Assembly (NCBI GenBank): GCA_963720565.1
Contig: CAVRFW010000005.1
Coordinates: 128,001-192,000, forward strand
Direction: 5' to 3'
DNA length: 64,000 bases
From: Candidatus Bathyarchaeota archaeon
GTDB lineage: Archaea > Thermoproteota > Bathyarchaeia > Bathyarchaeales > Bathycorpusculaceae
The position numbers and the translations under genes were made by a program. The notes under the pieces are model-generated. The model did no database searches. It was given only the letters and a program-made list of their open reading frames with translations, and was not told the origin of the DNA. The stretch's first letter is position 1, and the number at the start of each line of letters is the position of its first letter. Shown here piece after piece: positions 57,715-64,000 of the stretch.

Positions 57715-59026
57715 TTATTTGTTCCACGGTCCTTGCCATAGCGGGTACTGGTAGGTTGCTCCTGCCTCTTTCATTAGCGCTGGAGGGGACATTGGCACTT
57801 GGGTTCCATTCTGCCACTGAAAAATGGCCATCATCAAGTAATCCTCAATTGGGCTATTCGGAGCACCTGACCCCACCAATACATCATGCGAAGAAGTAAA
57901 CATAAAATGCCTAGCCATGCTGAGTCTCCACATTCGTCGTCTCCAAAGCTTTGATTACGGCTTCGGTCTCAGTCGTCCCTGCTCGCTCGATAGCGTCAGG
58001 GAGAATAATCCGCACCGTATCGTAGGCGGGAATCGCAGTGCTGCCTGCCAATTCTCCCCATCTTTGAAAATACGCTTCACGAGTGGGCAGTGTCTTGTTA
58101 GTCACTGGGTACCCTGCAACTGCAGGCGACGCAGCGGCAGAGATGGTGTCGCACTTCCCTTCAGTCAACTCCCATCCTGTAGGTCCTGCTGCTGATCCCA
58201 AGACTCCCCAAACTACGAACGGCGATTGACGGTCAAACCACTCTTTAACAAATAGAACGTCTCCCTGCGTAATTATGTATGGAACCAGAATTTCTGCTCC
58301 CGATGCTTCGATGGCGGCAAGGTAGCTTGTGAAATCAGTGGTTCCAAAGCTATACGGGGTATTGTAAACTACTTTGAAGCCATAGTTGGAGAGAGCCTGG
58401 TTCAGATTTGATGCCACTGCCTTTCCAACTGGAAAATCGTCGAATAGGAGTGCAACTTTTGTGAAGCCGGTGTAGTTTCCAACGGTGATGATGCCGCGCA
58501 GTAGTCCGGCAGCTGATGCGGTGTCGTTTGGTGGAAAAGCTCTGAAGGAGTACTTGTATTTTTGGTAGTTGTCTGAAACTCGCTGCGTATAATTGTCGCC
58601 GCCTCCGAACATGATAAAATGGATTTTCTTGTGTTCGCAACATACATCTTGATAGGCTAGAACGTTTACGCCTCCCATGGATATTATGTAGTCTGCCTTG
58701 TCAACGGTTATCAGCTTGGTTAGGGCGTTGACGCCCACCGATATGTCTGCTCCCGATGAACTGTCGTCGTCTTCGCCAACCACCGTGAGGTTTCGTCCCA
58801 AGACGCCACCTTGAGCGTTTAGTTGTTCGGCAGCCAACACCGCTCCCCGCCAGAGGGATTTTCCAGCGGGCATGTCTAGATCTCCGCAGACGCCGATTAT
58901 GATGTTTTCCGAAGGCGGCAGTCTAGCGCTCCAAAGCATGTAAGCGGCGCCTCCGCCGATGGACGCGACAACGATCATGGCGATCAAGAATGCTGATTGA
59001 ATCTTGGTCAAGGCTCTAGAATTCAT
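57715..59026 (-). CDS. Branched-chain amino acid ABC-type substrate-binding protein, frameshifted near 57922
   Basis: N-terminal TM, GAVLAAEQLNAQGGVLGR, TTDFTSYL, AIERAGT; the C-terminus continues in the 57715-57933 frame. Confidence 0.85.
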
Positions 59027-59214
59027 AGACAGCCCATCCCACCATTCAACTTATGCCGGGAGAAGCAGATATTAAATTTGCTGTCGCCAGAACGAATCAC
59101 CCTGTTTGCTGCTCCGAAACAAGTGGGTTTTAGTCGGCAGCGGCAAACCTCAAGAAACCCAAAATCTTCATTTTAAGCTTATTCTCGCTAAATATGGCTG
59201 AATAGCGCTTATTT

Positions 59215-59302
59215 TGGTGCGGGAGGTGGGATTTGAACCCACGAACGCCTACGCGATAGGGTCCTAAGCCCTACTCCTTTGACCAGACTTGGAGACCCCC
59301 GC
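59215..59302 (-). tRNA. tRNA-Leu(TAG)
   Basis: GCGGGGG/CTCCCGC acceptor, TAGGG-CTTAGGA-CCCTA anticodon arm, long variable arm, encoded CCA. Confidence 0.95.
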
Positions 59303-59423
59303 CGCACGCTGTTTAGGAGGTGAGAATACGTTGGTGTCCTTTAATATTTGTTTAACTATCCCGAGAACCAAACCGCAAGCTCTTTATTTCAAATTGCAGT
59401 TTTGTTCTCAGAGCGTTAGTGAT

Positions 59424-59500
59424 GCCTCGGTAGCCTAGCCCGGTGGGGCGTTACCTTGGTAAGGTAATGGTCGCGGGTCCAAATCCCGCTCGAGGCTCCA
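59424..59500 (+). tRNA. tRNA-Thr(GGT)
   Basis: GCCTCGG/TCGAGGC acceptor, TTACC-TTGGTAA-GGTAA anticodon arm, T loop TCCAAAT, encoded CCA. Confidence 0.93.
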
Positions 59501-59733
59501 CTAAAATCTCCACTAAGACGAGACGTCATCGATTCTTCATTGATACTGGTGAAGTGTTCATTTTTTTCTGCAGGCAATTGCATCTGTTCAAGAGAAAGCG
59601 TGATTGCTTCTTTCTCTTAACTGTAAGTTGAACCATTGGTTTTTTTCCTTTCTGATATATTGCGGAAAAAGAAACTTGCCTTTTATTGGGTTACGACTTC
59701 TTTTTAGATTGTGGAATAGAAGGAGCGGTTTAT

Positions 59734-59877
59734 GTGAGTCGCCTTGAGAAAAGATTAGCTACCCTGTTCGGTTTGCTTCTGAGTCCTTTGTATTTGCTTG
59801 AGGAAAGAGAGCGCAATGAAAGAATGCAGGAAAGAATTAACCGACTGGCACGAAAGACAAGCAATTTCGAAAGCTGA
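59734..59877 (+). CDS. Small hypothetical protein (47 aa)
   Basis: GTG after GGAG; MSRLEKRLATLFGLLLSPLYLLEERERNERMQERINRLARK. Confidence 0.4.
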   Translation: MSRLEKRLATLFGLLLSPLYLLEERERNERMQERINRLARKTSNFES

Positions 59878-60312
59878 AGCATTCTTCTTTTCTTATCTCC
59901 AATCTTAGTTAACCAGCCAAGAAAGACTATTCTATGAGGTTTTGTCGTTTCTCACACATCAACTGCAGCGTATTGAACGACTATGTGCAAAATCGTGTTT
60001 AATGGCGATTAATCATCCATTATCTCCAGCATCGGCTGACCGCAGCAATCCGGATTTCTCTGTTGCTGACAGTTGTGAGAGTGCTTACAATCACAAGACT
60101 CGTAGTCATCTTCGATCTTTCTACCACATGTCTTGCACTGAAACGTCGGCATTCGTGTCCACCAAGAACACACTTTGAAAGGAGACATAAATATCTTCTA
60201 ACTGTAGTCCCAAAAAACCACGTAATACGCTTCTTTTCTATGAGAAAAGGGTGCTAAAATCGATTGTATTAATTTATATATATACCATAAGCAATGAAAT
60301 AAGGAGGATATC

Positions 60313-61056
60313 ATGGCTCTCGTCAGTCTTGGCGACACTTTGTCAATCGTGGCGATAGTAATAACGGTGGTTATCGCCTGTGCAATTGTGATTTTTGCCA
60401 TGCGGAAGCATAGAGAAACCACAAAAAAGCCTAAGCAAGCTGAAAAAGAACCCGCCCTCACTGGGTTGCCATTCAAACTCTCCAAGAGTGTTCAGTCTTC
60501 CGATGCCTCAAGCGCAAAAGATGAACTCAGAATCTTGGAATTGGAGAGAGAAATTCTAAGTGACGCAATAAGACGGCTTTATGAAGCTCACGCGGAAGGC
60601 AAAATCAATGAGCAAGAGCGCGAAAGACTTGCGAGTTCCTACAAGAGTCGTATGATGACCGTGAAAGAATCCATGGCGAAGGACGAAACCGTTGTGGCTT
60701 TGCACGAACTTGAAAGCATGCAAGAAGACCTAATGAAGCTCTTCAGCGAACGCTTCGGCGACTTAAGCTCCAAAGTAGACGAGCTCCGGTCAAAAATTGA
60801 CGTCAAACCCATAAAGGAAATACCGGTAAAAATGCCCCCGCCCGAGGTTCAAATTCCCGAGCAGCTTGAAGTTGCTGAGGAGGAAGAAGAGGAAGAGACG
60901 GCGGAAGAAGGGGGAGAATCAAAACCCAAAAAGAAAAAGAAACCGCTGGCAGAAAGGACAAGCCGAAAAACCGAAGCTGAGAAGAGAATAGATGAGATAA
61001 GGAGCGAAGTAGAGAAGGTTTTAGACAAGCTGGGGCAAATGGAGATTGAAACCTGA
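60313..61056 (+). CDS. Membrane-anchored coiled-coil hypothetical protein
   Basis: GGAGG SD, N-terminal TM, long helical segments, acidic/basic linker. Confidence 0.75.
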   Translation: MALVSLGDTLSIVAIVITVVIACAIVIFAMRKHRETTKKPKQAEKEPALTGLPFKLSKSVQSSDASSAKDELRILELEREILSDAIRRLYEAHAEGKINEQERERLASSYKSRMMTVKESMAKDETVVALHELESMQEDLMKLFSERFGDLSSKVDELRSKIDVKPIKEIPVKMPPPEVQIPEQLEVAEEEEEEETAEEGGESKPKKKKKPLAERTSRKTEAEKRIDEIRSEVEKVLDKLGQMEIET

Positions 61057-61759
61057 AAAGGAACTAGTTGAGAGCCAGAAGAGAAATGCGGCTTTGGAAG
61101 CGGTCAAGCACGTTAAGGACCGATTTATAGTTGGTTTGGGTAGCGGAAGCACAGCCGCCTATGCGATAGAAGCAATAGGGGAAAGAATAAGGCGCGAGAA
61201 CCTGGTCCTGATGGCGGTGCCGACTTCATATCAAGCGTTCTTGTTGGCAGCCAAATGTGGCGTTCCCTTAACAACCCTTGAGGAACACCCGATAATCGAT
61301 TTGACAATTGATGGTGCTGACCAGATAGACCCGAAGCTAAACTTGATTAAAGGCATGGGCGCTGCATTAGCGAGAGAGAAAATAGTCGCTTCAATGTCAA
61401 GAAAAAACGTAATAATCGCCGATGAAAGCAAGAAAGTCAAATTTCTTGGCGAGAATAATCATCCGGTGCCGGTTGAAGTTCTGCCTTTTGCAATCACCGC
61501 TGTAAAACAGAAAATTGAGAAAATTGGGGGAAAAGCCGTTTTGAGAGAGGGGAACGGAAAGCTCGGACCGGTGATAACGGATAACGGAAATGCCCTCATA
61601 GAAGCGTTTTTCGGGGTAATAGACAATGCTGCAGACTTGGAAAAGAAAGTTAAGATGATTCCAGGCGTGATTGAAACTGGTTTGTTCGTCGGTTTATCAG
61701 ACACTGCATACGTGGGAACTGTTTCGTCCGTAGTCAGGATTGAGAAAAAAACAGATTAA
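61046..61759 (+). CDS. rpiA: Ribose-5-phosphate isomerase A
   Basis: GLGSGST, DGADQ, KGMGAALAREK. Confidence 0.95.
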   Translation: MKPEKELVESQKRNAALEAVKHVKDRFIVGLGSGSTAAYAIEAIGERIRRENLVLMAVPTSYQAFLLAAKCGVPLTTLEEHPIIDLTIDGADQIDPKLNLIKGMGAALAREKIVASMSRKNVIIADESKKVKFLGENNHPVPVEVLPFAITAVKQKIEKIGGKAVLREGNGKLGPVITDNGNALIEAFFGVIDNAADLEKKVKMIPGVIETGLFVGLSDTAYVGTVSSVVRIEKKTD

Positions 61760-61875
61760 AGCTGTGTTCCAAAACTATACCGAGATTCAGCATCATTTTT
61801 GTGTCGCTTACTGATTAGTCCTCCGAAACGCTTTTATCAGCGAAATAACGTCTTTTGAGCAAGGTTCGAAGCTAC

Positions 61876-61959
61876 ATGCTAAATCGTGAAAGTCAAAAGC
61901 AGAGTCATCATCGAATGTTTTCTAGCTTCGGATACTACTTTTATTATTATTTTTGCTGA
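61876..61959 (+). CDS. Putative Tyr/Phe-rich leader peptide
   Basis: MLNRESQKQSHHRMFSSFGYYFYYYFC*; TATA-like TTTTATCA at about 61832 upstream; hairpin immediately downstream. Confidence 0.7.
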   Translation: MLNRESQKQSHHRMFSSFGYYFYYYFC

Positions 61960-62002
61960 GCCCAGAACCAAAAAAATTTCATGTTAAGGTTTCTGGGCGC
62001 AA
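61953..62002 (+). promoter_or_regulatory. Leader hairpin
   Basis: GCCCAGAA 61960-61967 pairs with TTCTGGGC 61991-61998; TTGC 61953-61956 can pair with GCAA 61999-62002. Confidence 0.65.
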
Positions 62003-62018
62003 GGATAGTTGATAATTA

Positions 62019-63251
62019 ATGGAAAACAAAAAAATTGTGGTCAAGTTCGGGGGTTCATCTCTAGCCGATCATGAACGCTTACTGAAAGCTGTAACTGCGG
62101 TGGTTAATGAATCGCAGAAAGGTACGCAGATCGCTGTTGTCGTGTCGGCTATGGGCAAGACAACCGACACCCTGCTCAGCACTGCAAGAAACACAAGCAA
62201 TGGGAAACTCCAAAAACAAGAACTGGACGATATTCTGAGTATGGGTGAACGGACAAGCGTTCGCATTTTCGCCGCTGCATTGCGAAATAACGGCGCGGAC
62301 AGCTGCTACTTTGATCCAATGGATGAAAATTGGCCAATAATAACTGACGCAGCATTCTCCAACGCTAACCCGTTGTTAATGGAATGTAAGCGTAGAATTC
62401 GGGAAAACGTTTTGCCAGTCGTTGAGAAAGGCATTATTCCTGTGATAGCTGGTTTCGTCGGCAAGACTCAGGAAGGAAAGATTACCACGCTTGGCAGAGG
62501 TGGAAGCGACACAACTGCATTCATTATAGCAGAAGCACTTCACGCCGACGAAGTTGTCCTGGTGACAGATGCTGACGGAATAATGTCTGGTGACCCAAAA
62601 ATCATCACAGGGGCGAAACGTCTTGAGGCGATAGATGTGAGCACTCTTGTGGGTCTGGCTGATTCTGGGGCAAAGTTCGTCCACATTAAAGCCCTCAAAC
62701 ACAAACCTCCAGCCATAAATGTACGGGTAATCAACAGTCAACATGGGAACCTGTCGGAGCAAGGCACAATAATAACAGGCGGATTGTCCACTGAACTTGA
62801 CGTAAGCATGGCTTATTCCTCGCAAGTGGCCGAGATAACAGTTGTCGGCAACAACATTTCCGAAAACCCCCAGATTGTTCAGGAAATGATGGAGAAAACC
62901 AAGAAGCACAACGCGTTGTTAGGCCTGTCCATGAACCAGAACAGCATTATACTCTACCTCGCGGAAGTAGAAGCCACAAACCAACTCGTCAACGACATTC
63001 ATCAAACAGTACTTAAAAACAAGGAGAATATAGCAATGGCAGTTAAGAAGAACCTCGCCTACTTCCGAATCAGCGGAGTCGGATTAGAAGAAACACATGG
63101 CATAATAGGAAAAATTAGCGAAACCTTACGCCTCAACAACATAAACATTTCCGGAATACTCACAATTACATCCAGCATACTCATATTCGTAGATTGGAGC
63201 GAAAAAGAGAAAGTGCTTAACCTCATCAGAAACGCGCTCAAAACCCACTAA
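62019..63251 (+). CDS. lysC: Aspartate kinase with ACT domains
   Basis: VVKFGGSS, VVSAMG, TTLGRGGSDTTA. Confidence 0.92.
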   Translation: MENKKIVVKFGGSSLADHERLLKAVTAVVNESQKGTQIAVVVSAMGKTTDTLLSTARNTSNGKLQKQELDDILSMGERTSVRIFAAALRNNGADSCYFDPMDENWPIITDAAFSNANPLLMECKRRIRENVLPVVEKGIIPVIAGFVGKTQEGKITTLGRGGSDTTAFIIAEALHADEVVLVTDADGIMSGDPKIITGAKRLEAIDVSTLVGLADSGAKFVHIKALKHKPPAINVRVINSQHGNLSEQGTIITGGLSTELDVSMAYSSQVAEITVVGNNISENPQIVQEMMEKTKKHNALLGLSMNQNSIILYLAEVEATNQLVNDIHQTVLKNKENIAMAVKKNLAYFRISGVGLEETHGIIGKISETLRLNNINISGILTITSSILIFVDWSEKEKVLNLIRNALKTH

Positions 63252-63268
63252 CAACGGAGATGAAAAGA

Positions 63269-64000
63269 ATGAACCAAGGAAAAACAAGAAGAATGAAACG
63301 CATAATGAACGAGGATCACTGCACGGTCATCGTTCCAATGGACCACGGGGTCACAATAGGACCCGTAAAAGGCATCGAAAACATGCAAACCATAGTCCAA
63401 CAACTTGTCAACGGCGGAGCCGACGCCATACTAGTCCACAAAGGCATCGCCAAACACGTCGACACAAAAGACTCAGGATTAATAGTTCAACTCTCTGCCT
63501 CCTCAAACTTGAGTTCAAATCCCAACACCAAAGTTCAAGTCTGCACCGTCAGAGAAGCCATCCGCCTGGGCGCAGATGCTGTGTCAGTACACATCAATGT
63601 TGGGGCGCAAGACGAAGACAAAATGCTTCAAACACTGGGTAAAGTTGCTAACGAATGTGACATCTACGGTATTCCACTCTTGGCAATGATGTATCCAAGA
63701 GGGCCGAAAATACAAGACGAACATGCCGTTGACGTGGTGGCGCATGCCGCTAGAATAGGTGCAGAACTTGGTGCAGACATTATCAAAGCAAACTACACAG
63801 GAAACATGGAAACATTCAGAAAGGTTGTCGAAAGCTGCCCAGTTCCAGTGGTTATTGCAGGCGGCCCCAAATCCAAGACAGCAAAAGAAATCCTGCAAAC
63901 GGCACACGAATCGCACAAGGCTGGAAGTGCTGGACTCTCGATTGGACGAAACGTGTTCCAACATGAAAACCCAACCCTGATGGTTAAAGCCCTCTGCGCT
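63269..64000 (+). CDS. 2-amino-3,7-dideoxy-D-threo-hept-6-ulosonate (ADH) synthase / DhnA-type class I aldolase (truncated by window end)
   Basis: Hand-translated [11 protein letters not shown]...[11 protein letters not shown]...HKG...AMMYPRG...AELGADIIK...IAGGPK...GRNVFQH; 17 bp after lysC. Confidence 0.85.

Follow-up and report, generated by a model that had tools for sequence, protein, structure and literature searches.

A conserved leader reading frame rich in aromatic codons, a probable ribosome-read amino-acid gauge ahead of an aromatic operon in Bathyarchaeia

The window analysed here is a stretch of 64,000 nucleotides from a Candidatus Bathyarchaeota genome whose closest named homologues are Bathyarchaeia records. 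Near its end lies the head of a ten-gene aromatic operon, preceded by a short leader open reading frame (ORF; Table 1). Behind lysC and ADH synthase the order continues on contig C5 with DHQ synthase II, aroD, aroE, archaeal shikimate kinase, aroA, aroC, an aminotransferase and prephenate dehydrogenase; for DHQ synthase II, the aminotransferase and prephenate dehydrogenase the best-family matches are below the cut-off. An earlier, sequence-only reading had proposed a Tyr/Phe-sensing leader peptide at this site and had counted the aldolase behind lysC to an aromatic operon: this gene does encode ADH synthase and stands near the start of a complete aromatic operon, and the DHQ synthase and aro/phe/tyr genes expected downstream are present. 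The end products of the pathway are Phe, Tyr and, via chorismate, Trp. Two further aspartate kinase paralogs exist in the genome; other paralogs lie directly behind an upstream gene and have no leader of this kind. The gene upstream of the leader encodes RpiA (ribose-5-phosphate isomerase; window 61046-61759), and among relatives the upstream gene varies. The genome is 89% complete, and no trpE was found in it; the gene is present in 33 of 48 same-family genomes.

Table 1. Features at the head of the aromatic operon (window coordinates).
Feature	Position	Strand	Remarks
BRE-like and TATA-like promoter elements	61823..61839	+	same-family loci share a near-identical, similarly spaced motif
P1, 5' arm	61865..61874	+	5' UTR beside the leader start codon
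Leader ORF	61876..61959	+	27 codons plus TGA; counterparts at 69 loci, 65 of them with ATG
P1, 3' arm	61923..61932	+	Ser-Phe-Gly codons
Putative sensor codon run YYFYYYF	61933..61953	+	3' part predicted to pair with the lysC ribosome-binding/start region in the ribosome-free fold
Hairpin P3	61960..61998	+	begins at the leader stop; A/U-rich loop; arms 61960-61969 and 61988-61998
SD-like purine stretch ahead of lysC	62001..62012	+	3' end of the genome's 16S: GGATCACCTCCT
Aspartate kinase (lysC), paralog attached to the aromatic operon	62019..63251	+	NCBIfam NF005159 above cut-off
ADH synthase	63260..64000, continues beyond the window	+	TIGR01949 above cut-off

The leader ORF (translation MLNRESQKQSHHRMFSSFGYYFYYYFC*) is present as had been described, and so is its run of seven aromatic codons, TAC TAC TTT TAT TAT TAT TTT. 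The run does not strictly end the ORF, as a Cys codon stands before the TGA and the C-terminus reads YYFYYYFC. The two additional Phe residues ahead of the run (codons 15 and 18) and the TATA-like box (TTTTATCA, 61832-61839) were likewise found, the latter together with a BRE-like CCGAAAC at 61823-61829. Because these promoter elements are conserved about 40-50 nt before the leader ATG, transcription would be expected to start upstream of the leader ORF, probably near 61861-61863. Public RNA runs gave sparse contigs, with shares of at most 0.12, and were set aside as evidence. At least three of 1906 entries for short upstream ORFs in the genome have seven aromatic residues in eight; among the matches listed are the window leader and one ORF on contig C12, and the genome-wide scan for further codon-run leaders gave no second convincing case among the matches listed. 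The -1 frame of the leader (window 61945-62012) crosses the hairpin and has its stop 9 nt before the lysC ATG.

The stem predicted near the leader stop, here called P3, exists. Its distance from the lysC ATG, given as about 16 nt, holds for the extended stem (about 16-18 nt) but not for the core stem, which ends 20 nt before the ATG. A second helix, P1, was absent from the earlier reading and is formed by pairing of the 5' UTR with the Ser-Phe-Gly codons of the leader. The predicted fold of the window consists of P1 and a long stem, in which P3 is lengthened by Tyr/Phe codons that pair with the lysC start region (z -2.1). A search of Rfam returned no match at gathering score (four matches far below it, best E 0.061), and a scan of the window for bacterial-type promoters and terminators found none, nor any hairpin-plus-U intrinsic terminator.

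Searching the 301 genomes of the class with the kinase gave matches in 96 of them at E <= 1e-90. Loci were taken from the matched genomes except G044, G078 and G197, and further loci were added. A broken copy in G002 was left out, and after removal of duplicates and of two loci without an anchor 112 orthologous loci remained: 69 with a leader of the window type, 42 with another device and one without upstream DNA. The broken copy, from a genome of the same genus (G002:C2:75918-77141), lies in four pieces with stops, through assembly error or decay. The 69 leader peptides are all different, with 17-44 residues and divergent N-terminal halves; 65 start with ATG, and in 68 at least five of the last twelve residues are aromatic. 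In these last 12 positions, 531 of 828 codons specify Phe, Tyr or Trp (TTT 125, TTC 125, TAT 194, TAC 74, TGG 13), compared to 4.2% aromatic residues in lysC, and only nine are other U-rich codons, which argues for selection on the residues and not on a U-tract. The C-terminal motif SF[GDE]Y.FYY.F is kept within the family of the window, the order of F, Y and W differs from family to family, and some relatives have Trp codons in their leaders, too. The frame of the leader relative to lysC is distributed 27/23/19 over the three possibilities, and ADH or DHQ synthase follows downstream at 65 of the 69 loci.

The most aromatic ORF was chosen at each locus, which inflates these counts, and kin are not independent; a control subjected to the same kind of choice therefore matters. 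It was provided by other aspartate-kinase loci, from a contig scan that listed at least four orthologues. A best 10-residue aromatic count of at least six occurs in 64 of the 69 orthologous leaders vs one of 85 control loci. The leader is thus confirmed as a real feature beyond chance, and its frame and codons, whose conservation had been named as a check, are both kept among the relatives at 69 loci.

Covariation of the hairpin had been proposed as a further check, and both P1 and P3 covary. In 40 close sequences the two helices together have 93.2% of cells paired and eight pairs with two-sided changes, as high as in none of 500 shuffles, with the structure taken from the window and seven rows misaligned in P3. 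For P1 by itself 95.6% of cells are paired, and five of its eight pairs show two-sided changes; the consensus that the folding tool predicted from the same alignment recovers P3 only in part. Over all 69 loci the hairpin scores z < -2 against shuffles in 59, and in 67 its start lies within -3 to +7 nt of the leader stop (the fold window began at -3); its sequence is unlike from family to family.

Leader conservation, codon selection, covariation and operon content all support the proposed Tyr/Phe-sensing leader peptide. It is very likely that the leader gates the aromatic operon as a ribosome-read gauge of charged tRNA-Tyr/Phe (in some relatives also of Trp), because sensing by a stalled ribosome is the sole reading that fits the codons, the position and the operon. 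As to the output, the likeliest is that a stall on the run frees the lysC start, and we regard the chances of such translational gating, which is a prediction, as evenly poised. The first ribosome would translate the leader and, where aromatic amino acids abound, depart fast, upon which the RNA would fold shut: P1 would conceal the leader's own start, and P3 would fold the U/C-rich Tyr/Phe codons onto the lysC start and its purine-rich binding site. The kinase gene would then stay untranslated, and the tightly packed operon behind it would be lost through coupling or polar termination. If charged tRNA is short, the ribosome would stall on the run and cover the pairing strand, and lysC could be translated.

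Several results bear on gating at the SD of lysC. The expected number of pairs between the codons and the start region has a median of 13.0, vs 7.0 with a shuffled hairpin (higher in 62 of 69 loci) and 9.8 with codons outside the run (50 of 69), and both comparisons favour it. Two further points in its favour are that the layout appears equal to that of the mycobacterial polycysteine attenuator discussed below, and that a nested clade controls the same gene by a seemingly purely translational device. Also in its favour, the modelled cost of opening the lysC start in the window is 7.9 kcal/mol in free RNA vs 1.6-3.7 kcal/mol with a ribosome on the run. The family medians are 5.9 kcal/mol free, 4.8-5.1 stalled and 5.9 with a ribosome at the stop, and the cost is higher in free than in stalled RNA at 42 loci and lower at 18. 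Across the family the modelled switch is therefore weak, about 0.5-1 kcal/mol, which speaks against SD gating. Moreover, the codon:SD pairing falls into the best decile in only one of 69 loci when compared to synonymous variants and in five of 69 when compared to swapped partners, so that there is no sign of a co-adapted pairing.

A close rival of SD gating keeps the same sensor with a transcriptional output. U-rich RNA (codons, hairpin loop or tail) that is bared by the departing ribosome would permit aCPSF1/FttA or oligo-U termination, and a stalled ribosome would shield it and let RNA polymerase read on. Among the proteins of the genome is a match to arCOG00543 above cut-off, which we take to be aCPSF1/FttA. 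U4 tracts occur in the last ten codons at 53 of the 69 loci, in the hairpin at 41 and after it at 16. P1, moreover, would let only a first ribosome use the leader, in keeping with a decision taken once. According to the available text of a study of archaeal termination, U4 tracts are required and a hairpin is not needed (PMC13675443). Against these points stand the lack of a hairpin-plus-U terminator in the window, several loci without U4 in codons, hairpin or tail, and the equal use of TTC and TTT. The suggestion that the codon run doubles as a U-rich terminator signal is supported in part only, with U4 frequent in the last codons but TTC as common as TTT; we consider the transcriptional output a tentative alternative.

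In another arrangement, the hairpin would be an ON element comparable to a 2:3 antiterminator: a stall would keep it intact and the lysC start free, and a ribosome at the stop would melt its 5' arm, so that the released 3' arm blocks the start. The last aromatic codon mostly lies two before the stop, and at 53 of 69 loci a ribosome at the stop makes local opening more than 1 kcal/mol costlier than it is when the hairpin is intact (in the window 4.8 vs 0.6, as high in none of 30 shuffles). Family-wide, however, shuffled spacers cost the same (3.97 vs 3.88; 5.84 vs 5.96), and the 3' arm therefore does not look like a tuned anti-SD; once freed, it forms pairs with the SD region in 30 of the 69 folds, no better than shuffles. 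The hairpin would also refold after departure of the ribosome, and we regard this arrangement as improbable.

It is more doubtful still that the window leader acts by a hungry-codon frameshift, which would take the ribosome beyond the stop and across the hairpin. The window's genome does contain candidate frameshift cassettes, the sister clade has them at this very gene (see below), and the -1 frame reaches the lysC start at 24 of 69 loci, the window included, vs 13.0 +/- 2.6 in shuffles. Yet an SD-like codon plus NTT-T site is found in none of the 69 leaders, the leader-to-lysC frame is mixed, the +1 frame reaches lysC at 33 loci vs 29.8 +/- 4.2 expected, and the -1 frame falls short of it at 45 of 69; frameshifting in a leader of the window type is thus unlikely. 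Hardly credible is an action of the peptide itself, by nascent-chain arrest or as a small protein, or an ORF that is a by-product of a U-rich element: the conserved C-terminal motif in the window's family could point to an acting peptide, but helix P1 accounts for the Ser-Phe codons, the F/Y/W order varies between families, and non-aromatic U-rich codons are nearly absent.

Among known systems, the mycobacterial polycysteine attenuator Ms5788A, in the available part of its description, likewise has a short first ORF whose 3' end carries a run of codons for the end product, and it too lacks an intrinsic terminator; its leader folds back with the run opposite the SD of the next gene, as is predicted for the leader studied here (10.1101/834739). 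The gauge proposed here differs from it in its archaeal host, in sensing two or three amino acids, in the pairing of its short 5' UTR with part of the ORF and in a much weaker predicted codon:SD pairing. With E. coli pheL-pheA, trpL and hisL, as far as the available texts cover them, it shares a short leader ORF rich in end-product codons (10.1101/834739, PMC5009743); a helix starting at the leader stop and a biosynthetic operon behind are further shared features. Unlike pheL and trpL, it has no terminator hairpin with U-tail, no clear alternative antiterminator and no Rfam match, and it thus lacks the terminator of classical transcription attenuators. In archaea, a two-codon Trp minigene before trpY of Methanothermobacter has reportedly been proposed as a translational sensor. 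Control of archaeal trp/aro operons by aromatic supply is also known from TrpY (Methanothermobacter) and Tar (TK0271, Thermococcus), and the archaeal aromatic amino-acid regulators that we found in print are, unlike the leader, DNA-binding proteins in the available text (PMC6737238). A study of Haloferax small proteins, in its accessible part, merely likens some 5' ORFs to leader peptides (PMC10117724). In a literature search that covered mostly main texts outside subscription journals we found no archaeal leader-peptide attenuator or amino-acid-sensing frameshift. Such amino-acid gauges were found described in bacteria only, and the leader looks like a variant of leader-peptide control.

The 42 loci with another device all belong to families f26 and f35. 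Upstream of the kinase, and one base off its frame, the pattern GGT GRN NNN NTT TWY is present at 42 of 42 examined loci of these families and at none of 70 others; it was derived from those 42 loci, and the split follows the family labels. The short ORF stops 3-15 codons past the pattern. The +1 frame continues into the kinase at 39 of the 42 loci; in L084 and L207 it is a separate ORF of 57-59 codons that ends at the aspartokinase's own start, and one locus shows a one-base break relative to a near-identical genome. These features resemble a prfB-like +1 shift site placed at Phe/Tyr codons. In prfB, according to the available text of a 2016 review of frameshifting, a +1 shift takes place at a CUU_U site, 3 nt behind an SD, when the A-site is slow; the sister-clade device likewise has a short 0-frame ORF, an SD-like element 3-4 nt before an NUU codon, a next codon beginning with U and the main ORF in the +1 frame (PMC5009743). 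Unlike prfB, the candidate cassettes here and at the genes discussed below have in the A-site a sense codon for the pathway product (Phe, Tyr, Trp, Ile, Leu, Val, His), their codons are often in tandem, and the host is an archaeon. The combination of SD-like element, NUU-U site and +1 target was found in none of the 69 window-type leaders and in the 42 sister-clade loci.

Alternatively, a GTG inside the GGTG could serve as start codon, and an in-frame GTG does exist at all 39 fused loci. The spacing from GGTGR to ATG in the genome, however, peaks at 4-7 nt, which suits the ATG of the upstream ORF (5-6 nt) and not the GTG (9-11 nt), and a ribosome stalled there would repress too, so that we rate a GTG start as less likely than the frameshift. 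In a quick tree the 42 frameshift loci form one branch (support 83) nested among leader-bearing loci, and the window-type leader therefore looks older. In loci of genus g118 (e.g. L070, L079 and L080) three five-codon units stand in tandem, with a Phe, a Tyr and a Trp codon at their respective ends; the Trp unit has no NTT codon.

Similar putative cassettes, each with a codon of the pathway's own product, precede trpE, ilvB, a cimA-like gene and hisG, and those of ilvB, the cimA-like gene and hisG lie in the genome of the window. For trpE, an off-frame NTT TGG is present at 65 of 73 loci (30 best hits, 40 chosen across families and three more); 64 of the 65 have a start codon exactly four codons earlier, with one chance upstream site, and 26 of the 65 are without an in-frame start near the front. 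A gene of the LeuA/CimA family has TTT ATY, with an Ile codon, at 29 of 30 loci; we name it cimA-like since the other paralog sits in the leu cluster. In the window's genome (G000:C5:209677, + strand; L380/L401) a six-codon ORF ends Phe-Ile-stop, and its +1 frame is the LeuA/CimA-family gene. Cassettes at codons for Leu, Val or Ile precede ilvB at 23 of 30 loci, and the +1 frame ends within -15 to +26 nt of the ilvB start; re-pairing of the tRNA at the Leu sites looks poor. The short ORF before ilvB at G000:C5:207790 (- strand; L280/L238) has cassettes at a Leu and a Val codon, and its +1 frame of 46 codons stops 15 nt before the ilvB start. Two successive +1 cassettes at His codons, and hence three frames, lead to the start of hisG (G000:C9 ~204340-204560, + strand; L431), as known from the window's genome alone. 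The cassette scan of this genome gave 49 entries, of which two (ilvB and cimA-like) were read as real, and missed hisG, which needs two shifts. Outside the class, 21 pattern matches were picked, ten of which open into long +1 frames; the five such frames that were scanned encode TrpE (3) and tryptophan-tRNA ligase (2).

Bathyarchaeia thus probably run much of their amino-acid synthesis by the ribosome itself, via two exchangeable devices: a stall-and-hairpin leader and an SD-assisted hungry-codon +1 frameshift. The latter would have replaced the leader at the same gene in one clade. Its targets would also include trpE, ilvB, the cimA-like gene and hisG, as well as trpE and the gene for tryptophanyl-tRNA synthetase in further classes of the phylum. 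If this is true, it would be the first attenuator-like control in archaea, and hungry-codon frameshifting would be put to productive use in nature. This second device touches on a gap named in the 2016 review, which in its available text knows no example of a hungry-codon frameshift that gives a starvation-useful product (PMC5009743); a 2021 review, in its accessible part, lists one archaeal case of -1 frameshifting (PMC8211752). A conserved sensor without intrinsic terminator makes a regulatory linkage of archaeal ribosomes, RNA polymerase and aCPSF1 testable, and frameshift-gated genes would be annotated with a wrong start or as broken.

Two minor observations may be added. In L381, L382, L384, L387 and L389, from other classes of the phylum, a Trp-codon cassette opens a +1 frame of 360-365 codons, and two of these, when scanned, are tryptophan-tRNA ligase. 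Within the window, a scan of positions 58900-60000 revealed tRNA-Leu(TAG) at 59215-59302 (- strand) and tRNA-Thr(GGT) at 59424-59500 (+ strand).
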